Below, piece by piece: positions 1,775-61,941 of a stretch of DNA of 62,730 nucleotides; position 1 is the first letter of the stretch; every line of letters begins with the position of its first letter. Source of the DNA: a bacterium. Its GTDB lineage: Bacteria; Patescibacteriota; Minisyncoccia; UBA6257; GWB1-50-10. A program made the position numbers and the translations under genes. The notes beneath the pieces were generated by a model that did not search any database, had not been told where the DNA came from, and saw nothing but the letters and a program-made list of their open reading frames with translations. The stretch lies in NCBI GenBank assembly GCA_021824045.1, contig JAKALR010000001.1:1-62730 (forward strand). The letters are read 5' to 3'.

Positions 1775-2134
1775 ATGGAAAATATAGAAAAAGGAGGAAA
1801 TATCGCAAAAGTCCTGCAAGAGGTGCCGCCGAATGTCCACGATTTGGCCGACAGCATCATGGTCGATATTCTGGCGAATGAAACTCTGGAAAAGAATATC
1901 GAAACGGGAGCGAACGAAATTCTCATCGGACAGCTCATGGAGGCGGAAATCACTAAGGTAGTGACGAGGTATGAAAATGCAGAGGGGTATGGCAAGGACT
2001 ATGTCGAGGATGCGCTCCTTCCGGAGCTCCGGAACGCCTTGGAGCATTTTGATTTTAGGAGCAGGAATGTCGACGAGGAAAAGGCAAATCGGATACGGCA
2101 AGCGGTGGCATCTTCTTTTGAGAAAAGGTCTTAG
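1775..2134 (+). CDS. hypothetical protein (119 aa from ATG 1775; track ORF begins at TTG 1760)
   Basis: Only sizeable ORF in the typA-uvrC gap and divergent from typA. No family recognised. Confidence 0.4.
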   Translation: MENIEKGGNIAKVLQEVPPNVHDLADSIMVDILANETLEKNIETGANEILIGQLMEAEITKVVTRYENAEGYGKDYVEDALLPELRNALEHFDFRSRNVDEEKANRIRQAVASSFEKRS

Positions 2135-3420
2135 GGGAGAAAATTATATCCCCTGACCTTTTTGTGGTACGCAATGGCGAAGCGATGAGCTTCGTCTCGT
2201 ACTTTTATGAGCGTCGCGAGATCGGTGAATGGCGGAATTCTTCCTATGATATCATTCCGTTTCCGTTCCGGTCCTTTCACGATGCCGACGACCGGGATGG
2301 TAACTCCCGCCTTGTTGAGGATTCCGCGGACGGCGCTCACTTGTCCTCTGCCGCCGTCAATGAGGAAAAGATCGGGTAAAGGCCATCCGCCGGCCGGCGG
2401 AGTTCTTTTGAGGCGCCGTTCGAGAATTTCCCGGAGCATGCCGAAATCGTCCGGTTGAAGAACGGTCTTGATCTTAAATTTCCGATATTCGTTTTTGTCA
2501 GGCTCGTTGTTGGTGAAGACAACCATGGAACCGACCGCCGAAGTGCCGTTGATGTTTGAAATATCATAGCCTTCGATACGGTAATTTTGCTTGTCCGCCA
2601 TAGCCTCGGCGGAGGTGGAAATCTTGTCATCGGAGATGACCGCCACGTCTTGGATGTGCCGGAGGGCGAATAATTGCCGCTTCAGCTCCCCTGCCCACTC
2701 AAAGTCCAAGGCCTTGCTTGCCGACCTCATGTCGCGCTCTATATTCTTTGTTATTCTTTCTTTTTTGCCTTCGAAGATGAGTTTGACGTTCTGTATGTTC
2801 TTCGCATACTCCTCTTTTGAGATCGCTCCGATGCATGTTCCGGGGCAAAGACCGATTTGATAGTCGAAACAAGGCCGTTGTAGGGGCCTTAGCGGAGTCG
2901 GATGAGTTGCATACGGGAATATCCTCCTGATAATCCTCAGGGCTTCGCGGATGCTTGAGGCGGAGGTGAATGGACCGTACCCCGCACCAAGCCGAACGCT
3001 GCGCTCTTCGCGCTCCCGTGCGGGGCGTTTCGTTGGGCGTTTCGTTGGTGACGGGGCGAGTCTTTTGCCTTCTTTAATATCCTTTCCTCTCACCAATAAA
3101 ACCCTGGGATATTTTTCTTTTGTTATGGCGACATAGAGGAAGCTTTTGTCGTCTTTCTCTTTGATGTTGAACGGCGGCTGGTGTTTCTTGATGAGTTTCG
3201 ATTCGAGTATCAGTGCTTCCACGCCCGTATCGGTCTTCTTAAATTCAATTTTACTTATTCCATCCACTAATCCCTCGATCCTTGCGTCGTGAGGTCTCGT
3301 GAAATAGCTCGAGACCCGTCGCTTCAAGTTGACGGCTTTGCCGATATAGAGAATCTTCCCCGCGCCGTCTTTCATGATGTAGACGCCGGGAGTTTCCGGA
3401 AGTTTTGAGTAGAGATTCAT
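2131..3420 (-). CDS. uvrC: excinuclease ABC subunit C, short form (429 aa)
   Basis: GIY-YIG N-terminus (PGVYIMKDGAGKILYIGKAVNLKRRVSSY) and endonuclease core (FLIDGGRGQV..RDEAHRFAIAYHKK). The protein ends right after this core. Confidence 0.85.
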   Translation of the reverse strand: MNLYSKLPETPGVYIMKDGAGKILYIGKAVNLKRRVSSYFTRPHDARIEGLVDGISKIEFKKTDTGVEALILESKLIKKHQPPFNIKEKDDKSFLYVAITKEKYPRVLLVRGKDIKEGKRLAPSPTKRPTKRPAREREERSVRLGAGYGPFTSASSIREALRIIRRIFPYATHPTPLRPLQRPCFDYQIGLCPGTCIGAISKEEYAKNIQNVKLIFEGKKERITKNIERDMRSASKALDFEWAGELKRQLFALRHIQDVAVISDDKISTSAEAMADKQNYRIEGYDISNINGTSAVGSMVVFTNNEPDKNEYRKFKIKTVLQPDDFGMLREILERRLKRTPPAGGWPLPDLFLIDGGRGQVSAVRGILNKAGVTIPVVGIVKGPERKRNDIIGRIPPFTDLATLIKVRDEAHRFAIAYHKKVRGYNFLP

Positions 3421-3456: not shown

Positions 3457-3600
3457 GCCTGCGGAAATTTGTTTTGAGGAAGCTCTCGGAGGCAAAAAAG
3501 CTTGGTTCCGCCTTTGGCGGATTTTTCGCCGAGAGAGCAGGATGGCTTTTGCCGCTGGAGCAAAAGAACATCCGGTTCCGAGAAATAAGTTTCCGCAGGC
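3457..3600 (-). promoter_or_regulatory. conserved multi-stem intergenic element, copy 1 (candidate structured leader RNA of uvrC)
   Basis: Closing stem GCCTGCGGAAA/TTTCCGCAGGC. Inner stems are GGCAAAAAA/TTTTTCGCC, TCCGCC-TTT-GGCGGA and CTTTTGC-CGCTGGA-GCAAAAG. Homologous to 9737-9881. Confidence 0.6.
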
Positions 3601-4513: not shown

Positions 4514-4547
4514 ATTAAAAATTAAAAATTGGAAATTAAAAATTCAG
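4514..4547. repeat. AT-rich intergenic motif AAAAATTAAAAATTGGAAATTAAAAATTC, copy 1
   Basis: Near-identical strings at 7155-7181, 20387-20418 and 22341-22372, with a partial copy at 31248-31268. Always upstream of a minus-strand gene start. Confidence 0.8.
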
Positions 4548-4560
4548 AAAGTTCTCAAAA

Positions 4561-7086
4561 TTAATCCTTGAGAACTTTCTTGAGGTACTCGCCGGTGAAA
4601 CTCCCGGCTTTTTTGGCGATGATTTCCGGATTTCCCGCGGCGATCAGCCGGCCGCCTTTTTCCCCTCCCTCGGGGCCGAGATCGATTACCCAGTCGGCGG
4701 TTTTCACGACGTCCAGGTTGTGCTCGATGACGACGATGGTATTCCCCCGTTCGACGAGTTTTTGGAGGACCTCGATGAGTTTCTTGACATCGGCGAAGTG
4801 GAGACCGGTTGTCGGCTCGTCCAAAAGGTAAAGCGTGCGTCTCGTGTCGCGCTTGCCGAGTTCGGCGCCAAGTTTGATCCGCTGTGCTTCTCCGCCGGAA
4901 AGGGTTGTTGCCGACTGTCCGAGTTTCAAGTACCCGAGACCGACCTCATTCAGTATTTTCAATTTGTCCTCAATCCAGGGGATGTCGTCGAAGAACTTCG
5001 TCGCTTCCTCGATGGTCATTTCGAGGACTTCGAAAATGTTCTTTTCCTGGTACTCAACTTCCAGCGTTTCCCGGTCGAATCGCTTTCCTTTGCAGATGTC
5101 GCAGGTTACGTAGACCGTCGGCAGGAAGTGCATTTCGATCGCGATGACGCCGTGACCCTCGCAGTTCTCGCATCGCCCGCCGCGGACGTTGAAGCTGAAC
5201 CGCCCCGGCTTGTATCCCCTCACCCGCGCATCGGGCGTCGAAGCGAAGAGATCGCGGATTGGTCCCCAGGCGCCGACATACGTGGCGGGGTTCGATCTGG
5301 GCGTCCGGCCGATCGGCGATTGGTCGATGTTGATGATACGGTTCAAGTATTCGGTTCCGATGATCTCTTTGCATTGTCCCGTCTTGAAATGCGATCCGTT
5401 GAATTTGTTGGACAAGTTCTTGAAAAGGACGTCGTACACAAGCGTGCTTTTGCCTGATCCGGAAACGCCGGTGACGGCCGTGAACCGGCGGAGCGGGATA
5501 TCGACGTCGAGATTCCTCAGGTTGTTTTCCGTGGCGCCTTTTACTTTCAAGAAGTCGTGGGTTTTCGGGACAGCTCTCCGCGTTTTCGGAATCGCGATGA
5601 ATTCTTCGCCCCGGAGGTAATCCAAGGTCAACGATGTTTGCTTCTTGTCGGAAAAGACCTGGGGAATCGGGCCGTGGGCGACAACTTTCCCGCCGTGGAC
5701 GCCGGCGCCCGGGCCGATGTCGACGAGATAGTCCGACTCGCGGATGGTATCTTCATCATGTTCCACGACGATGATGGTGTTCCCGAGATCGCGGAGGTTT
5801 TTGAGCGTCTGGATGAGTTTCGCGTTGTCTTTCTGGTGGAGACCAATCGTCGGCTCGTCGAGAATGTAGAGGGCTCCCACGAGGCGCGATCCGATCTGGG
5901 AAGCCAGGCGGATCCGCTGCGACTCCCCGCCCGAAAGCGTCCCGGCTTTGCGGTCGAGTGTCAGGTATTCGAGTCCGACGTCAATCATAAATTTCAGACG
6001 ATTCTTAATCTCTTTCATCGGCACTTCGGCGATCATGAGGGAACTCTCGTTTTTCTTGAGTTTCGTTTCGAGTTTTGTGAAAAAATCGAACGAGTTCACG
6101 ATTGAAAAAGCGGTGACCTCGGCGATATTCTTGTCATCGATGAGCACATTTAAGCTTTCCGTCTTGAGCCGTTTCCCGAGGCAGGTCGGACATATTTTTT
6201 CCGACCAGGGATTTTCGACGCCGAGGCCGTGGCAGGTTTCGCAGGCGCCGAAGGGGCTGTTGAACGAAAAGAGCCGCGGTTCGATCTCGGGGAAGGAAAA
6301 GCCGTCCACGGGGCAGGTGTATTTGGCGGAAAGGGATACCTCCTTGTCGGTAATGACGGTCACGACGTCGTTGCCGTATTTCAACCCGTTTTCGATGCTC
6401 TCCGCGAGGCGCAGGCGGTTGTCCTTATTCCGGAAATCGAGGGCCGCGGGGATTCGGTCAATCACGAGATCGATCGAGTGCTGCTTATAACGGCTGAGAT
6501 CGATTCGCTCCCTGAGGCTCGCGTATTTGCCGTCGATCCGGACCTCCGAGAATCCGGCGTTCAGGAAGTCGTAGAGCATTTGGTAGTACTCTCCCTTCCT
6601 GCCGCGGACGACGGGTGCCAAGATCACCATATTCCGTTTTTCCTTCGTTTCTTTGTAAATTTGGATTGCGATGTCGACGATCTCTTCCTGTGTCATCTTC
6701 TTGATCTCGCGGCCGCAGAGCGGGCAGTGCGGGACGCCCACGCGCGCGAAGAGAACGCGGAGGTAGTCGTAGATTTCCGTGATGGTGGCGACCGTCGAGC
6801 GCGGATTCGCGCTGTGGTGTTTCTGATCGATGGAGATGGCCGGCGACAATCCTTCGATTTCATCGACGTCCGGCTTGTCGAGGCTGCCCAAAAACTGCCT
6901 GGCATAGGCCGAAAGGGATTCGATGTATCGCCGCTGTCCTTCGGCGAAGATGGTGTCGAAGGCCAACGACGATTTGCCTGACCCGGAAAGTCCCGTCATG
7001 ACGATCATTTTGTCGCGCGGGATTTCGAGGTTGATATTCTTCAAATTGTGCTCGCGGGCACCTTTGATAATTATTTTATCGGTCAT
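4561..7086 (-). CDS. uvrA: excinuclease ABC subunit A (841 aa, insertion domain absent)
   Basis: Two ABC modules ([18 protein letters not shown]; LSGGE signatures) and zinc CxxC pairs. Confidence 0.95.
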
Positions 7087-7154
7087 GGGTTTGAAATTTT
7101 TAATTTTATAAATAATTTTCTCATGTTTAAAACATTAAGAAATTAAAAGGTTTA

Positions 7155-7181
7155 TTTAAAAATTGGAAATTAAAAATTCAG
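7155..7181. repeat. AT-rich intergenic motif, copy 2
   Basis: TTTAAAAATTGGAAATTAAAAATTCAG. The flanking ~70 nt up to the uvrA start also resembles the rsmI upstream region. Confidence 0.8.
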
Positions 7182-7274
7182 TCATTGCGCATACGCGCCA
7201 ATGCCCCTCGGTTCGCTTTCCGGGAGGGTATAAGGCGAGTCTAATATAAAACCTGCCGAAGGTCAAAGTCAGAA

Positions 7275-9712: not shown

Positions 9713-9736
9713 ACGTTATTTATATATTAAACGAGG

Positions 9737-9881
9737 AAAATGGGAAATGCCCGTGCGGCAGCTCCCGGAGGCGAAAAAGCTCGGTTCCGCCGAAGACGGA
9801 TTTTTCGCCGAGGGATAGCAGTGGCGGCTCCGCTCGCTGGAAGCGGAGAACGCCCGATGCCGGCAGGGCATTTCCCATTTT
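9737..9881 (-). promoter_or_regulatory. conserved multi-stem intergenic element, copy 2 (candidate structured leader RNA of uvrB)
   Basis: Closing stem AAAATGGGAAATGCCC/GGGCATTTCCCATTTT. Inner stems are GGCGAAAAA/TTTTTCGCC and CTCCGCT-CGCTGGA-AGCGGAG. Homologous to 3457-3600. Confidence 0.6.
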
Positions 9882-9890
9882 TCGAGTTGG

Positions 9891-12059: not shown

Positions 12060-12105
12060 TGCGGAATACGGGAATCGAACCCGTGTCTCAACCTTGCCCC
12101 ACACC
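12060..12105 (-). pseudogene. orphan tRNA 3' half (from anticodon position 36) preceded by GGTGTGGGG
   Basis: Minus-sense GGTGTGGGG-CAAGGTTGAGACACGGGTTCGATTCCCGTATTCCGCA: anticodon-loop 3' side, T-arm and acceptor 3' strand, with no 5' half nearby. Confidence 0.7.
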
Positions 12106-12133
12106 AATCAAGGATTGAAAACTCTTATTCTTG

Positions 12134-12204
12134 TGCGGGTAAGGAGAATCGAACTCCTGTCTCAACCTTGGGAAGGTCGCATTCTACCACTAAACCATAC
12201 CCGC
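12134..12204 (-). tRNA. tRNA-Gly(CCC)
   Basis: Manual fold: GCGGGTA/TACCCGC acceptor, anticodon arm CGACC-TTCCCAA-GGTTG, T-arm AGGAG-TTCGATT-CTCCT. Confidence 0.9.
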
Positions 12205-24112: not shown

Positions 24113-25130
24113 CGAGTATTTCCCCCTTCGCATAATTGGCCAGGACTTTTTTGCTCGGGAAGAAAATCGGCTGCGGCAGCTTGCTGAGAGAGAACCACCG
24201 CCACTCCGTTATTTCGTCCGGTTCTTTCGCCCGCACTCTTCCCTTGAAGTCGGTGGCGAGAAGTCCGACCGTGACGAAGTGCGAATCTTTCGTCATGTCG
24301 CTCGAAATGCTTATTAGTTTCAGCTTATTCTTGTCGATCTTGATCCCGGTTTCTTCAAGGGTTTCCCGGTATGCTCCATCCTTGAAACGTTCATGAAATT
24401 CCAGTTTCCCGCCCGGCATGGTCCACGTTCCCCCGCCGTGGAGTTCTGAGTCGGCTTTTCGGGGATCACCGTTTCTCTTGCCGAGAAGAATTTTCCCGTT
24501 TTTGAGGATCATGACGCCGACGCCGTCGCCGATCCTTTGTTTCATAACGCCTATGACGAAGCTGTTCAAGAGCCATGAGCTCGATTGGATTTTTCCGCCG
24601 CGGCCGATGTTAAAAATCATCTTCGTCCCCATTTTTTTGCAGAGTGCTACTTCGGGAATATTCTTTCTTGTCCGGTCTCCGCCATTCACGAAAATATCCG
24701 GTTTCAGTTCTTTCAGTTCGGCCGAGACGCTCATATCTTTCGGGTTTGGGGGGTGCGAGGTTAGAATCACCCGATCGACTTCTCCTAAGGCTTCAATGAT
24801 CTCCTTTCGCTCTTTTTGCGGCATGAAGGCAAATCCTTTTTTCTTTTTGAGCCAGTTGTCGTTGTTTAGAATGACGATGAGTTTGTCGCCCAGCCTTTTC
24901 GCTTCCCGGAACATCCGGATATGGCCGATATGTACGGGGTCGAATCCCCCGCTCACGGCGACGATGACGGGTTTCTTTTTACCATAGGCGTTTTCCGTCC
25001 CGCACCATGGACAGAACCACTTCTTTTTCGATCGCGGCGCGTCGCCGATTGTCCACCACTTCTTGCACCTGCTGCAGCTCATGTGGTGAAGTTTCTCAAC
25101 GCTCCGCTTGCTTTTGATTGTTTCTCTCAT
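24105..25130 (-). CDS. zinc-ribbon / cytidylyltransferase-like / Nudix fusion protein
   Basis: CSRCKKWW..CPWCG, then AVSGGFDPVHIGHIRMF (HxGH nucleotidyltransferase), then GGKLEFHERFKDGAYRETLEETGI. Confidence 0.75.
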   Translation of the reverse strand: MRETIKSKRSVEKLHHMSCSRCKKWWTIGDAPRSKKKWFCPWCGTENAYGKKKPVIVAVSGGFDPVHIGHIRMFREAKRLGDKLIVILNNDNWLKKKKGFAFMPQKERKEIIEALGEVDRVILTSHPPNPKDMSVSAELKELKPDIFVNGGDRTRKNIPEVALCKKMGTKMIFNIGRGGKIQSSSWLLNSFVIGVMKQRIGDGVGVMILKNGKILLGKRNGDPRKADSELHGGGTWTMPGGKLEFHERFKDGAYRETLEETGIKIDKNKLKLISISSDMTKDSHFVTVGLLATDFKGRVRAKEPDEITEWRWFSLSKLPQPIFFPSKKVLANYAKGEILDE

Positions 25131-27876: not shown

Positions 27877-27949
27877 GGGGTGAAATACGTCGGGCCGCCG
27901 GTGCGGCCGTGGACAGTTGCGGGACAATATCAAGCGTATGAGCGGTCAT
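27860..27949 (-). other. candidate 29-codon leader ORF overlapping the secA start
   Basis: GGAGG-8 nt-ATG. Encodes MTAHTLDIVPQLSTAAPAARRISPHVTLN. Its first codons lie in a 20-bp stem, and its stop TAA is 12-14 nt inside secA. Confidence 0.3.
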
Positions 27950-28050
27950 GGTGGTGACCTCCAATATTTTTATTGTTGTGTGAGTGCGCATCCATGACCG
28001 CTCATACGCTTCAATTGTAAAGGTGAGTGCGCAACCGTGGCCGCACCGGC
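27897..28050. repeat. nested long inverted repeats in the secA upstream region
   Basis: Inner perfect 20-bp IR at 27932-27951 / 27992-28011. Outer 12-bp IR at 27897-27908 / 28039-28050. Direct repeat GTGAGTGCGCA x2. Confidence 0.85.
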
Positions 28051-28096
28051 AGTCCGAACCGTCTGATGCTTATCCTTAAGCATAAGGGCTATTCCA

Positions 28097-57583: not shown

Positions 57584-57605
57584 CTACCATCCCGGCAATT
57601 TAGGG

Positions 57606-57689
57606 TGCCCAGGAGAGGATTCGAACCTCCACGTCCTTAACGGACAGCAGCACCTCAAGCTGTAGCGTCTGCCATTTCGCCACCTGGGC
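57606..57689 (-). tRNA. tRNA-Leu(GAG), class II
   Basis: GCCCAGG/CCTGGGC acceptor, anticodon loop TTGAGGT, long variable arm GTCC-GTTA-GGAC, T-arm GGAGG-TTCGAAT-CCTCT. Confidence 0.9.
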
Positions 57690-57691
57690 AT

Positions 57692-58399
57692 TTATAGTTC
57701 CCTTCCGATAATCCTGAGGGCTTTTCCTATCTTTTCCCTCTTTCTTGAAAGACAAACTACGCCTTTATTGTAATATAATTTTGATAATAACTTCAAGGAA
57801 TCGGTCTTGGCGTATTTTAGCTGGTACACTGAATCATTGATGCTCTTGGTGATGTGGCCACGTGCGCCGAACAACTCTTCTATCTTGACTCGTAGCCACT
57901 CAATGTGTACTTTACTAGCCGAAACAAAAGCTGTGTAAAACATAAAACTGGAACGCCATCTCGGATCCCAATAAGAATAAAATGTCCCATCACCGTCGAG
58001 ATGACCTCGGATAAAGTCAGAAAAATATTTTTTGGGGATTTTAATTGCTCCGATTGTCTTTGATTTCGCCGGCGTAAGGCCAATTGTTATAAGAAATTTA
58101 TAAAAATTAACGTCGCCAAATTGGACGTGTGGCGACTGTTTATGAGTAAAGCCGGATGTTTTATAACTGATTTTCACTTGAATGCCAAGGCATTTCATAA
58201 AGTTATCAAGTTGTTCCATATCATTGGATGTGAAATCGATGTGCCGACCATCCGGAGACAAATTTCCATCGGTTGCAAGAAGTCCCATGGCGTAAGCAAA
58301 ATGAGGTGACCACCGAATGGCCACTTTCCCCTGCGGTTTCGTTCCCCTCTTCCCCATCTCACTTTCATTATACCTCAAATAAAAACCCCGCTCGTCCAT
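57692..58399 (-). CDS. LAGLIDADG-family homing endonuclease-like protein, free-standing
   Basis: Two LAGLIDADG motifs (GLLATDGNLS, GHLDGDGTF). The stop codon ends 2 nt before the tRNA-Leu 5' end. Alternative start at 58357. Confidence 0.8.
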   Translation of the reverse strand: MDERGFYLRYNESEMGKRGTKPQGKVAIRWSPHFAYAMGLLATDGNLSPDGRHIDFTSNDMEQLDNFMKCLGIQVKISYKTSGFTHKQSPHVQFGDVNFYKFLITIGLTPAKSKTIGAIKIPKKYFSDFIRGHLDGDGTFYSYWDPRWRSSFMFYTAFVSASKVHIEWLRVKIEELFGARGHITKSINDSVYQLKYAKTDSLKLLSKLYYNKGVVCLSRKREKIGKALRIIGREL

Positions 58400-58751: not shown

Positions 58752-58799
58752 TGGATTTCATAGTAACAATTACCTATCTAAAAGTCAAAATTTTAACAA

Positions 58800-58942
58800 G
58801 AAACCGTCTTATTTCGAGCGAATCATTCGGAGACCGAGCGGGCACGGCTTCCGCCCTTGAGGCGGAAGAGCGAGGTCGAGGATAAGCGCGGGCCGCCGGC
58901 TGGGGCGGGCCGACGCGGGTTCGCTCGAAATAAGACGGTTTC
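58800..58942. repeat. perfect 23-bp inverted repeat enclosing a 97-nt GC-rich spacer
   Basis: GAAACCGTCTTATTTCGAGCGAA at 58800-58822 pairs with TTCGCTCGAAATAAGACGGTTTC at 58920-58942. Inner hairpin CTTCCGCC..GGCGGAAG. Confidence 0.85.
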
Positions 58943-58948
58943 TCATCC

Positions 58949-60597: not shown

Positions 60598-60879
60598 TTA
60601 TATTCTCGACCGGTGGAGCCAATTCCACAAGGCGGCGAAGACCCAACCGAGGACATATCCGATGGCGGTTGTCACGATAACGAGCAGAATGGCCGTTCCC
60701 CAGGCAAAATTCCCTATGGTATAGGGAGGATGTATGAAGTGCAACCCGAAAATCCAATCCATGATTGGCTGAGCTAATCCTATCAAAACTAAAAACGCCC
60801 AGAATGCATGGCATAATCCAAGAAAAACTCCGAATACCACCCCCGACTTATTCTTGTCTAATGAGTTCATATTTTTCAT
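60598..60879 (-). CDS. hypothetical membrane protein
   Basis: Three hydrophobic helices. The track N-terminus overlaps tRNA-like sequence, so it was trimmed to MKNMNS. Confidence 0.5.
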   Translation of the reverse strand: MKNMNSLDKNKSGVVFGVFLGLCHAFWAFLVLIGLAQPIMDWIFGLHFIHPPYTIGNFAWGTAILLVIVTTAIGYVLGWVFAALWNWLHRSRI

Positions 60880-60910
60880 AAATATGCGACCTTTTGAAGT
60901 ATTGATTTTG

Positions 60911-61259
60911 TGGACCTGGGGAGAATCGAACTCCCGGCTCCTCATTGTTCCCGCACTTTCCCGAGCAGGGGCGAGGTTTTAAGTGTGCAATCCCGTACAA
61001 TGTGGACCGTAGCGGATTCGAACCGCTGACCTCCTCATTGCAAATGAGGTGCTCTACCAACTAAGCTAACGGCCCCTTTCTTGAATTTAAGTATAAAAAA
61101 AGCACAGAATTCTCGCAAACCGCCTAGAAATGAGCCGCCACATCGTACGGGACAAAAGCGGTATTCTTCCGGGGCAAAATTACTTATATATAAATCACCG
61201 TAGGTACTTATCCGTTGAAAGCAAAATCGTTTGTTTTCAACCCACTGAACTATAGGCCC
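60911..61259 (-). pseudogene. degenerate tRNA-like shell Y enclosing tRNA-Ala
   Basis: 5' part: GGGCCTATAGTTCAGTGGG, a 74-nt insert, then GAATACCGCTTTTG. Helix TCCCGTAC (61145-61152) pairs with GTACGGGA (60991-60998). 3' part has T-arm GGGAG-TTCGATT-CTCCC and acceptor CAGGTCCA (G3:U70 possible). Confidence 0.55.
61003..61075 (-). tRNA. tRNA-Ala(UGC)
   Basis: GGGCCGT/ACGGTCC with G3:U70, anticodon loop TTTGCAA, T-arm AGCGG-TTCGAAT-CCGCT. Own promoter-like TTGCGA-17-TATACT at 61090-61118. Confidence 0.9.
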
Positions 61260-61271
61260 TCCGTCACATCA

Positions 61272-61550
61272 TGGTGGGCATGGAAGGAATCGAACCTTCG
61301 ACCTCTGTCTTACTTGCCCCGCACCAAAATTGCGCTTTTCATGTCTGTGCGCGTGAATGGAATCGAACCATTGACCTCTGTCTTATCAGGACAGCGTTCT
61401 ACCACTGAACTACACGCGCAATTTTCGGTGCGGGGTCAGGCAGCGTTCTTCCGGGGTGAAAATGCCATATATAACTTAGCATAAGTATTCACCCGTTGAA
61501 AGCAAAGTTTCTTGCTTTCAACCCACTGAACTACATGCCCATTATTTTTC
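61272..61550 (-). pseudogene. interrupted tRNA-Ile(GAU)-like shell X enclosing an intact tRNA-Ile
   Basis: GGGCATG..CATGCCCACCA acceptor pair. 83-nt insert in the D-loop (61449-61531). Insert after anticodon nt 35 is bounded by CCCCGCACCGAAAATTG / CAATTTTGGTGCGGGG. One base is missing in the anticodon stem. Confidence 0.65.
61348..61419 (-). tRNA. tRNA-Ile(GAU)
   Basis: GCGCGTG/CACGCGC acceptor, anticodon arm CTGTC-CTGATAA-GACAG, T-arm AATGG-TTCGATT-CCATT. Confidence 0.9.
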
Positions 61551-61727
61551 ATTTCGAACGAACGAACCAGTCATATCGAAGATATCAGGACAGCATTCTT
61601 CCGGGGCGAAAGCGCTACTCTACTGCATGACTCCTTTTAAGGGGAGTTCGGTGAGACGAAAAAGTGGGTAAAAGACTTGGCCTAAGCGGCCCGGAGCGCA
61701 CACTTTTTCGGCTTGCCGAGCTCCCCC
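61551..61727 (-). other. partial third copy of the tRNA-linked module plus a stem enclosing a terminator-like palindrome
   Basis: Contains ..CGCCCCGGAAGAATGCTGTCCTGATA (Ile-like D-stem/anticodon fragment). Stem GGGGAGCTCGG (61716-61726) pairs with CCGAACTCCCC (61641-61651). Palindrome at 61659-61708. Confidence 0.5.
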
Positions 61728-61728
61728 A

Positions 61729-61941
61729 TTACTGGGTTAAGTTTAATTTTTCGAAGCCCTGGATGTCAAATTGCACGTTTTGGGGCTGCGTCGGCGGCAG
61801 CTTCAGGGTCGCGTTGATGCTGTCGGCGAGCGAGGTCACAAAATAGAAGACAAGAATCAGGGTCGCCGCGAACATCACGAGCGCGAGAAGGATAAAAAGG
61901 TTCTGTCGGGAATTTTTGAGACTCTTGAGCTTGCCGATCAT
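61729..61941 (-). CDS. small hypothetical membrane protein
   Basis: 70 aa with one TM helix. Confidence 0.4.
   Translation of the reverse strand: MIGKLKSLKNSRQNLFILLALVMFAATLILVFYFVTSLADSINATLKLPPTQPQNVQFDIQGFEKLNLTQ

Follow-up and report, generated by a model that had tools for sequence, protein, structure and literature searches.

The 62,730-nt contig JAKALR010000001.1, which we analysed as a whole and refer to as the window, derives from a member of the Patescibacteria (candidate phyla radiation, CPR). It encodes an L19 of bacterial type as well as DprA and a pilus-like operon, and the best-named relatives of its LepA belong to Minisyncoccia, Jorgensenbacteria and Paceibacteria. The locus of interest lies downstream of a small pilus-associated gene; here ARAGORN and Rfam recognize two genes only, tRNA-Ile(GAU) at 61348-61419 and tRNA-Ala(UGC) at 61003-61075. 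The region around the tRNA-Ile gene is itself a tRNA-Ile-like sequence (61540-61275) with a perfect acceptor stem, a good T arm and an encoded CCA, such that one tRNA gene is nested inside the disrupted copy, or shell, of another. This shell, denoted S1, is interrupted in the D-loop and again in the anticodon loop, where it encloses the inner gene between two inverted-repeat arms (cassette 2). All shell and insert coordinates refer to the minus strand of the window, on which the parts of the nest follow one another in this order.

61523-61540, minus strand: 5' part of S1, GGGCATG-TA-GTTC-AGTGG (acceptor strand, D-stem 5' strand and start of the D-loop), with the acceptor type of the intact tRNA-Ile of the relative L012
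61451-61522, minus strand: D-loop insert (the module), 71-72 nt, with two hairpins in the predicted fold, hairpin 1 being GTTGAAAGCAAG/CTTTGCTTTCAAC and hairpin 2 GGGTGAA/TTCACCC with an AT-rich loop containing TTATATAT
61436-61450, minus strand: S1 segment AAGAAC-G-CTGC-CTGA (D-stem 3' strand, base 26, anticodon-stem 5' strand minus one T, and loop bases 32-35)
61419-61435, minus strand: left inverted-repeat arm of cassette 2, CCCCGCACCGAAAATTG, the final G of which is base 1 of the inner tRNA
61348-61419, minus strand: inner intact tRNA-Ile(GAU), acceptor GCGCGTG/CACGCGC (ARAGORN; Rfam, 76.2 bits)
61333-61347, minus strand: 15-nt spacer between the inner tRNA-Ile and the right arm
61317-61332, minus strand: right inverted-repeat arm of cassette 2, CAATTTTGGTGCGGGG
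61313-61316, minus strand: extra CAAG at the junction of the right arm and the shell 3' half
61272-61312, minus strand: 3' half of S1 from anticodon base 36 to CCA, TAAGACAG-AGGTC-GAAGG-TTCGATT-CCTTC-CATGCCC-A-CCA (partial Rfam tRNA match, 28.9 bits)

The 3' half of S1 runs from TAAGACAG to CATGCCCA-CCA, and the insert that separates it from the 5' half comprises 123 nt following anticodon base 35, 72 of which are tRNA. When both inserts were removed in silico, ARAGORN returned a cloverleaf in which the acceptor stem is paired at 7/7 positions, the D and T stems measure 4 and 5 bp, respectively, and the anticodon stem is short of one 5'-strand base; because of this missing base, the anticodon of the shell is miscalled. 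The cassette 2 arms, of 17 and 16 nt, pair over 19-20 bp with one bulge because the GCGC of the inner tRNA pairs too, and the predicted fold of the 270-nt region reaches -103.2 kcal/mol (z = -5.5 against shuffles). The first-pass annotation of this DNA, made from the sequence alone, had described a tRNA-Ile(GAU) within an older tRNA-Ile-like gene with intact acceptor and T arms and one base missing from the anticodon stem, and this description holds by ARAGORN, Rfam, removal of the inserts and an independent assembly. The two hairpins of the D-loop insert and the helix bounding the anticodon insert likewise stand, although the lengths given for the inserts, 83 nt and about 130 nt, have to be corrected to 71-72 nt and 123 nt. 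Also borne out is the kinship of the CAAG junction with a tRNA-Gly site: the window has exactly two occurrences of the 13-mer GGTGYGGGGCAAG, one at 61313-61325 and the other at 12093-12105, the junction of a tRNA-Gly fragment.

We compared the locus with loci of relatives, designated by L-numbers and mostly fetched through flanking proteins (about 30 bacterial loci; only about eight genomes sampled). A 30.7-kb contig of a different sample (L021) is 100% identical across the whole locus (1501/1501 nt), and the same architecture is present in a related bacterium, on a closed chromosome of 804,691 bp (L001, OY970216.1), and, with different sequences, in three other lineages. Given these counterparts, a chimera assembled from the tRNA loci of several strains is scarcely credible, even though strain variants exist and three contigs of the window organism (L022, L023 and L024) end within the locus; the nested locus is not an assembly artefact. 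A metagenome scan added two further copies, both of the Daviesbacteria locus, and nothing else.

Outer layers, the D-loop module and shell decay

Beyond S1 and cassette 2, the window contains the remains of a further Ile layer, a disrupted Ala-like gene and a displaced fragment of a tRNA-Gly gene, as well as two features upstream of the nest.

61740-61769, minus strand: promoter-like TTGACA-18-TAAACT at the end of the upstream small gene (consensus scan, 10/12 matches)
61641-61726, minus strand: H0, an 86-nt palindromic element with 26-nt arms, directly after the small-gene stop codon (inverted-repeat search)
61583-61615, minus strand: remnant of the outermost shell, S0, comprising the D-loop insert's 3' end, the 3' strand of the D stem and the 5' half of the anticodon (GCGCTTTCGCCCCGGAAGAAT-G-CTGTC-CTGATA), collinear with the complete outer shell of L001
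61541-61582, minus strand: left arm, TCTTCGATATGACTGG...GAAATGAAAAATAAT, of the older cassette 1, immediately upstream of S1 and near-identical to the arm beside the inner tRNA-Ile of L001
61153-61259, minus strand: 5' half of the Ala-like shell, GGGCCTA..AGTGG, a second module copy (61169-61241; 80% identical to the Ile-shell copy), then AAGAAT A CCGCT TTTG
60991-61152, minus strand: Ala cassette, with left arm TCCCGTACGATGTGG, a 62-nt leader, intact tRNA-Ala(UGC) at 61003-61075 (ARAGORN, Rfam) and right arm CCACATTGTACGGGA, and TTG on both flanks
60911-60990, minus strand: second right end (..AAAGTGCGGGA), then a tRNA-Ala 3' half from base 36 (CAATGAGG...CAGGTCCA)
12060-12204, minus strand: tRNA-Gly(CCC) locus, with the intact gene at 12134-12204, 37 nt ending in ..TTGGTGTGGGG, and, at 12060-12096, the displaced 3' half of another Gly allele, starting with base 36

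The Ile locus of the window thus consists of three layers, and the acceptor types alternate from layer to layer; the sequence CCCCGGAAGAA occurs three times in the window, every time at the Ile-Ala locus. Shell S1 corresponds to the inner gene of L001, the outer shell of which is kept in the window solely as the remnant at 61583-61615, and the right arm that partners the cassette 1 left arm in L001 (CCCATTCTTTTTCATTTC...CCAGTTA) is deleted in the window. H0 is common to the window and L001 only, being absent in six other relatives, among them L004, L007, L008, L009 and L012. The same small-gene end that bears the promoter-like site stands before a plain tRNA-Ile in L007, L009 and L012, and, judging from its sequence, this site likely starts a transcript that runs through the whole nest. 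The array is probably a single transcript from which RNase P and RNase Z free only the inner tRNAs, with the shell pieces as by-products, and the inner tRNA-Ile(GAU) is presumed to be the working gene.

The Ala shell as a whole extends from 61259 to 60911 and encloses the tRNA-Ala gene, with the module at the same D-loop position as in the Ile shell. The inverted repeat of its cassette (15 nt, 93%) is flush with a break after anticodon base 35, and the leader holds a promoter-like TTGCGA-17-TATACT (consensus scan). The shell is chimeric: its 5' half, with a CCGCT stem strand, matches an A2-type tRNA-Ala that is intact in L001, L008 and L015, and its 3' half has the TGGAG-type strand (TGAGG) that matches another tRNA-Ala allele, A1, while keeping the G3:U70 geometry with the 5' strand. 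A transfer-messenger RNA, considered for the Ala shell (G3:U70, about 350 nt), was rejected, as the search yielded just a 20.8-bit end-to-end artefact and permuted matches with E > 1.

We also looked for shells around tRNA-Leu, tRNA-Val and tRNA-Glu genes and found none. The tRNA-Leu(GAG) gene (57603-57690) has as its neighbour an open reading frame (ORF) of 235 amino acids that resembles LAGLIDADG proteins (57692-58399, minus strand; Pfam LAGLIDADG_3, 23.1 bits) and ends 1 nt before it. In L008 and L009, rplS is followed by about 60 nt and tRNA-Leu, with no such ORF, and in L011 the gap between rplS and tRNA-Leu is occupied by a 220-codon ORF with no Pfam match that ends 2 nt before tRNA-Leu. 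Being absent from this gap in L008 and L009, the window ORF therefore looks like a free-standing, inserted homing-endonuclease gene.

The module is found in the Ile and Ala shells of the window, in L001, L004, L008 and L015 and, in diverged form, in L003. The copies in the Ala shell, L001, L004, L008 and L015 match that of S1 at 73-87% identity; over all seven distinct copies, identity is 70-87%, with no grouping by tRNA type. Each copy follows G19 of the D-arm TAGTTCAGTGG/YAGAAC (the slash marks the insertion point), which is common to tRNA-Ile and one tRNA-Ala allele. The module occupies all dead copies with this D-arm and not a single working copy, the replacement tRNA-Ala having a D-arm of a different type, and its position is constant across shells with four acceptor sequences (two Ile alleles of the window clade, the Ala-type shell and the Ile shell of L003). 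In the copy from L003 (Daviesbacteria), hairpin 1 contains five compensatory pairs and hairpin 2 is different yet paired (GGGTTAC/GTAACCC), as judged from the folds of the individual sequences, this copy being the sole divergent one. The module may serve the inner gene as a promoter or leader, or it may be a hairpin element specific for this site or a passenger of the event that brought the inner gene. A scan for the sigma-70 consensus found no promoter site in it; a conserved TATA-rich box in the module resembles one upstream of the plain tRNA-Ile in L009, and a promoter role is possible. Phage or plasmid origin was rejected, there being no match among 50,697 phage and 72,556 plasmid records and no occurrence of the pattern in IMG/VR.

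The shells show signs of decay. The anticodon-stem base missing from S1 is missing from its L004 counterpart as well; the L001 shell has two mismatches in this stem, where the window remnant of the same shell keeps the intact strand. The shell D arm is degenerate in L008 and L015, the shell acceptor of L011 carries a G-to-A change, and the shell 3' halves are missing in L003, L008 and L015. In the window, S0 no longer has an acceptor or a 3' half, and most of its D-loop insert is gone.

These defects bear on the proposal that the outer gene is functional, the inserts being introns, or its halves forming a split tRNA that the GC-rich helix holds together once the inner tRNA has been excised, to yield a second tRNA-Ile or a tRNA-like RNA. 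The acceptor stem, T arm and encoded CCA of S1, the very stable predicted fold and the maintenance of the module hairpins by compensatory changes would all be consistent with such a function. However, the anticodon stem is broken in both S1 and the L001 shell, and entire halves are deleted. An Rfam scan of 60700-61800 with E up to 10 returned tRNA-related matches only and no group I intron or other ribozyme; no bulge-helix-bulge (3-4-3) could be drawn by hand at the D-loop or anticodon junctions, a continuous helix with one bulged base being predicted instead; and Pfam gave no match to a tRNA-splicing endonuclease family for any of the 40 large ORFs of the window. A group I intron, which the first-pass annotation had already considered excluded, is rejected, given the lack of a catalytic core (P3-P9 with the G-binding site), the size of the insert (123 nt, 72 of them tRNA, against usually more than 200 nt in such introns) and the failure of the exons to form an intact tRNA. 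Bulge-helix-bulge introns are rejected too, as the motif cannot be drawn at either insert. Since the shell halves are broken or deleted and neither a ribozyme nor a bulge-helix-bulge nor, among the 40 large ORFs, a splicing endonuclease was found, splicing and split-tRNA readings are unlikely, and we consider a functional outer gene very improbable; the cis arrangement of split halves that had been suggested from the sequence is not supported, for the same reasons. The shells are decaying, and in our best explanation the outer tRNA-Ile represents a dead resident gene.

Plain, nested and inverted sites in related bacteria

Relatives display both plain and nested versions of the locus, and the outer pieces and junction sequences recur in relatives and at other loci, so that the nest is not the one-off rearrangement that had been considered in the first reading of the sequence. 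Empty Ile-Ala sites (L009, L012 and L013) consist of the small-gene stop, tRNA-Ile, 8-9 nt and tRNA-Ala, and empty Gly sites (L085, L089 and L094) contain a plain tRNA-Gly. The intact tRNA-Ile of L012 has the acceptor of the window shell (GGGCATG/CATGCCC), and the closest relative, L007, carries the inner tRNA-Ile allele of the window as a plain gene. The Ile nest of L001 was filled independently: a complete GCGCATG...CATGCGCA shell surrounds a GGGCATA tRNA-Ile, with arms unlike those of the window, and a tRNA-Ile of the GGGCAT type is the inner gene in L001 and is itself a shell in the window.

The Gly nest of L083 has its shell in situ, behind the same upstream flank as in the empty site L089. 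The break reads TTCC[CAAG] / GCCGGGTAGTGAAAATGCGAT ... inner tRNA-Gly ... ATCGCACTTCTACTACCCGGC / [CAAG]GTTGAG, where a 21-nt inverted repeat (86%) adjoins the break without a gap and CAAG (or AA) is present on either side. The suggestion that the CAAG at the Ile site of the window was copied from a tRNA-Gly site fits this duplication of CAAG on the two sides of a Gly cassette. Nesting is thereby observed in several genomes and for three tRNA identities.

Additional rearrangements are seen at these sites. In L083, an 18-nt palindromic mini-insert (CCTGCCTGCGCAGGTAGG; 5402-5419) that is absent from the empty alleles lies in the anticodon arm of the dead tRNA-Gly shell. In the Daviesbacteria loci L003, L005 and L006, the shell anticodon loop contains a long hairpin of about 66 nt, flanked by TAA, without a tRNA, and an intact tRNA-Ile replaces the shell from the T arm onward. 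Finally, whole tRNA genes are inverted at orthologous sites, namely tRNA-Ile in L008, L010, L011 and L015 and tRNA-Gly in L090. The inverted tRNA-Ile of L015 is abutted by a region (4545-7200) in which inverted repeats of about 110 bp enclose the genes for HEPN_AbiU2, a helix-turn-helix protein and a large serine recombinase. It is possibly an invertible or mobile defence cassette at the same hotspot; no shell halves were found at its ends and no tRNA fragment at its far end.

The locus also varies between close relatives. The flanking protein P0003 is identical yet the locus next to it is either plain (L009) or rearranged (L008, L010 and L011); in L008 and L009, which share this protein, the tRNA-Ile genes have opposite orientations and the tRNA-Ala alleles differ. 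Two strain variants of the window organism diverge from it exactly at tRNA ends, L022 (4195-4234) after the shell 3' end, with CACGCCC instead of CATGCCC, and L024 (2934-2957) after the inner tRNA-Ile. Homologous and illegitimate recombination between strains clearly acts at the locus. The nests might even be nothing other than the debris of this process, with no dedicated mobile element: naturally competent bacteria would take up the DNA of related strains, homologous or microhomology joins within tRNA segments would pile up copies, and the shell halves would serve as homology arms for spread. In line with this explanation are the exact divergence points of L022 and L024, the mosaic alleles (the Ala shell with its A2-type 5' half and A1-matching 3' stem), the identical flanking protein beside plain and rearranged loci, the DprA and pilus genes that flank the locus, the constant company of module and anticodon break, and the lack of a transposase among the 40 large ORFs of the window. 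Unexplained are the inverted repeats of 15-21 nt flush with the break in three independent cassettes, the YCCCRYAC termini common to three unlinked tRNA genes, the duplicated CAAG and TTG at the flanks, and the recurrence of breaks at bases 35-38 every time. Serial gene-conversion debris, one of the options raised in the first-pass annotation, holds in part, as an overlay; as the whole account we consider it unlikely, though still deserving serious attention.

Insert ends and the origin of the nests

The inverted repeats lie at the exact insert ends in the window Ile nest (17/16 nt), the window Ala nest (15 nt, 93%) and the L083 Gly nest (21 nt, 86%). Termini of the form YCCCRYAC..GTRYGGGR bound the Ile, Ala and Gly inserts of a single contig, with four inverted pairs found against 0.44 expected, and the arms of the nests as a whole read YCCCRYAC..., GCCGGGTAGTG... 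or TAACTGG.... Short duplications flank the inserts, TTG in the Ala nest of the window, CAAG or AA in the L083 Gly nest, ATA or TA in L001 and TAA in L003. The flush inverted repeats, the related termini at three tRNA genes, the flank duplications, the filled and empty sites and the occurrence of both orientations favour cassette insertion by a trans-acting enzyme.

On balance we lean, with modest conviction, towards an explanation under which inverted-repeat cassettes with a tRNA gene as cargo enter the cognate tRNA gene at its anticodon loop and replace the resident. Such a cassette would measure about 120-160 bp and consist of a complete tRNA gene between inverted-repeat ends, without an enzyme gene, the Ala version bringing its own promoter-like site. 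It would enter the anticodon loop, at bases 35-38, of a resident gene of the same identity; the resident gene would be destroyed and the copy in the cassette would take over, because of which insertion would be tolerated even in a single-copy essential gene. Insertions into non-cognate genes would be lethal through loss of an essential gene, which would explain why they are never seen. Repeated rounds would produce Russian-doll nests, and a second, unrelated two-hairpin element of about 72 nt would occupy one exact D-loop position in the dead copies. The shells would then decay by point changes and deletions, while recombination between co-existing strains shuffled the alleles. A mobile cassette that delivers a replacement copy had been among the first readings of this locus, and the comparative data, in particular the empty sites and the independently filled sites with different arms and alleles, as well as the flush ends and flank duplications, lend it support.

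Several observations weigh against cassette insertion. The arms in L001 and L003 are not flush with the break, and arms differ from genome to genome. The flank duplications are short (2-4 nt) and ambiguous, and the Ile cassette of the window has no target duplication, with the foreign CAAG on one side only. The arms pair with the first 3-4 bases of the inner tRNA, such that they could be an RNA processing stem or an inverted duplication made in repair instead of cassette ends. The module and the anticodon break occur together in 6/6 shells, a coincidence that could reflect a single event or homologous spread via the tRNA halves instead of two independent elements. Pfam revealed no transposase, integrase or recombinase among the 40 large ORFs of the 62.7-kb contig, and neither these ORFs nor the approximately 30 fetched bacterial loci include an autonomous element with the same ends. 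The sample, moreover, is limited to about eight genomes. As no transposase or recombinase was found, the chemistry of insertion, whether transposition-like or site-specific with an enzyme supplied in trans, can only be inferred; the order of events, too, is reconstructed from the layers, and transcription and processing are predicted.

Alternatively, the nests would be scars of integrative elements that targeted the anticodon loop by means of a tyrosine integrase or a large serine recombinase and whose bodies were subsequently deleted, leaving attachment (att) site remnants and displaced halves. The Gly locus of the window is classical in this respect, where the intact gene is followed by a short spacer and then by the 3' half, directly repeated from the anticodon loop on; in L022, foreign DNA is joined right behind the variant shell 3' half; the serine recombinase cassette of L015, the only locus at which such an enzyme was seen, abuts tRNA-Ile; and the arms of L083, when joined, would form a palindrome of 44 bp centred on AA, as long as the attP (the attachment site of the element) of a serine recombinase. 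Nevertheless, integration by crossover does not leave a complete gene flanked by a 5' half and a 3' half; every nest would require two independent events plus precise deletions, and its two remnants would not form an inverted repeat. A direct 3'-half repeat is present at the Gly locus only, the Ile and Ala shell halves not being direct att repeats of the inner gene, and the window Ile copy does not fit the attP-sized palindrome of L083. The window encodes no integrase among its 40 large ORFs, a circle of about 130 bp is implausibly small, and the far end of the L015 element is without a tRNA fragment. We regard integrative scars as distinctly improbable. A search with the joined arms GGTGCGGGG-N0-8-CCCCGCACC, as expected of an excised circle or an attP-like sequence, gave 58 viral matches, none of which reached the specific arm sequence, and the joined Ala arms gave no viral match; joined arms of this kind were rejected as a candidate.

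The termini of the Ile insert had also been likened to those of elements at start codons elsewhere in the window, a kinship that proved weak. The hairpin with the ends CCCCGCAC..GTGCGGGG (2980-3025; 46 nt, GC-rich) lies inside the uvrC ORF (2131-3420, minus strand), in a Lys/Arg/Pro-rich stretch of UvrC, and two other YCCCGYAC matches that we examined, one coding (24932-24939) and one beside the ATG of the same gene (24998-25005), are not part of an inverted-repeat element. The window does contain intergenic inverted-repeat elements of about 145-170 nt, at 9730-9888, 3457-3600, 58799-58943 and 27890-28057. The first two have a common internal core, GCTCYCGGAGGCRAAAAAGCTYGGTTCCGCC...GGCGGATTTTTCGCCGAG, and the first three are located just upstream of a start codon, between co-directional genes. 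These are probably the start-codon elements of the first reading, and they belong to a family different from the arms of the tRNA cassettes.

Comparison with known systems

MITEs (miniature inverted-repeat transposable elements) and mobile insertion cassettes (MICs) are non-autonomous, possess terminal inverted repeats and are mobilized in trans, and MICs carry passenger genes. By anatomy, these are the closest known kinds: the tRNA cassettes resemble them in their small size, flush terminal inverted repeats, lack of an enzyme gene, related termini at several loci, filled and empty sites and short duplications in some copies. They differ in that the only cargo is a complete tRNA gene, that the target is the cognate tRNA gene, which is replaced, that no autonomous partner is known, and that the Ile copy of the window lacks a duplication. 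The literature we searched, in which prokaryotic MITEs have been surveyed (PMC11602168), contained no description of a tRNA-carrying MITE or MIC, nor of nested bacterial tRNA genes.

The tRNA cassettes share with tRNA-targeting integrative elements an invasion rendered harmless by a replacement sequence, a break in the anticodon loop and, at the Gly locus of the window, displaced 3' halves. Williams reportedly described in 2002 how such elements target tRNA genes and restore the gene from a copy in attP, with the anticodon loop as one class of sublocation. Integrative elements, however, are kilobases long and carry an integrase gene; by crossover they supply only the 3' segment, and the repeats that they leave are direct, whereas the cassettes place a whole gene between non-overlapping 5' and 3' halves and have inverted-repeat ends and no integrase. 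Group I introns, which interrupt the anticodon loop of cyanobacterial tRNA-Leu and tRNA-fMet and of proteobacterial tRNA-Ile and tRNA-Arg, are likewise anticodon-loop insertions in bacterial tRNA genes that spread between alleles. Unlike them, the tRNA cassette has no ribozyme core and is harmless through replacement rather than splicing, and the host gene decays.

The eukaryotic Dada DNA transposons insert specifically into tRNA and snRNA genes, in many cases around the anticodon loop, and the target flank on one side is sometimes replaced by a sequence thought to be carried over from an earlier target (PMC8869645). The specificity for the anticodon loop is similar, and the CAAG at the Ile site is analogous to the carried-over Dada flank. 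Dada elements nonetheless differ from the tRNA cassettes in being eukaryotic and autonomous, in making duplications of 6-7 bp and in relying on a multicopy target, whereas the target in the window is effectively single-copy and the element brings a substitute. None of these three kinds, MITEs and MICs, integrative elements or Dada, carries a whole replacement tRNA into the cognate gene.

Disrupted tRNA genes of archaea include tRNAs with multiple non-canonical introns as well as split and permuted tRNAs (PMC4090602, PMC4390854). The inserts in both the D-loop and the anticodon loop, and the halves that on paper are joined by a GC-rich helix, are reminiscent of these genes, but the host here is bacterial, no bulge-helix-bulge is present, the exons do not rebuild an intact tRNA and halves are missing in relatives. 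As for the module, a short two-hairpin unit present at several sites with its hairpins maintained, it resembles mitochondrial double-hairpin elements. Mobile elements of this type are said to have been described by Paquin, Laforest and Lang in 2000 from fungal mitochondria, where GC clusters reportedly occur also. The module differs from these elements in its strict confinement to one D-loop position and, so far, to dead CPR tRNA copies.

It is possible, although we put this forward only tentatively and with some doubt, that the tRNA cassettes constitute a new class of selfish elements in ultra-small bacterial genomes: non-autonomous inverted-repeat elements with a tRNA gene as the sole cargo that home to a cognate tRNA gene, single-copy and essential, at its anticodon loop and take its place. 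Because tRNA finders call the inner genes only, nests of this kind stay unannotated, and shell halves can be mistaken for split or intron-containing tRNAs. If the proposal is correct, the hypervariability of tRNA loci between strains, and the assembly breaks at these loci, would be explained in the lineages concerned. Successive invasions by rival alleles would leave nests, whose corpses would be marked by a second element specific for one D-loop sequence. The nested layers would then be a natural record of serial tRNA allele replacement, from which one may ask whether the swaps are neutral or a response to pressure, such as that exerted by nucleases directed at certain tRNA genes or tRNAs. 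More generally, replacement would represent a third route, beside self-splicing and the reconstitution of att sites, by which an essential gene can be invaded without killing the host, and mobile DNA would colonize the single-copy essential tRNA genes of genomes of about 0.8 Mb, which have no spare copies, by bringing the replacement along.

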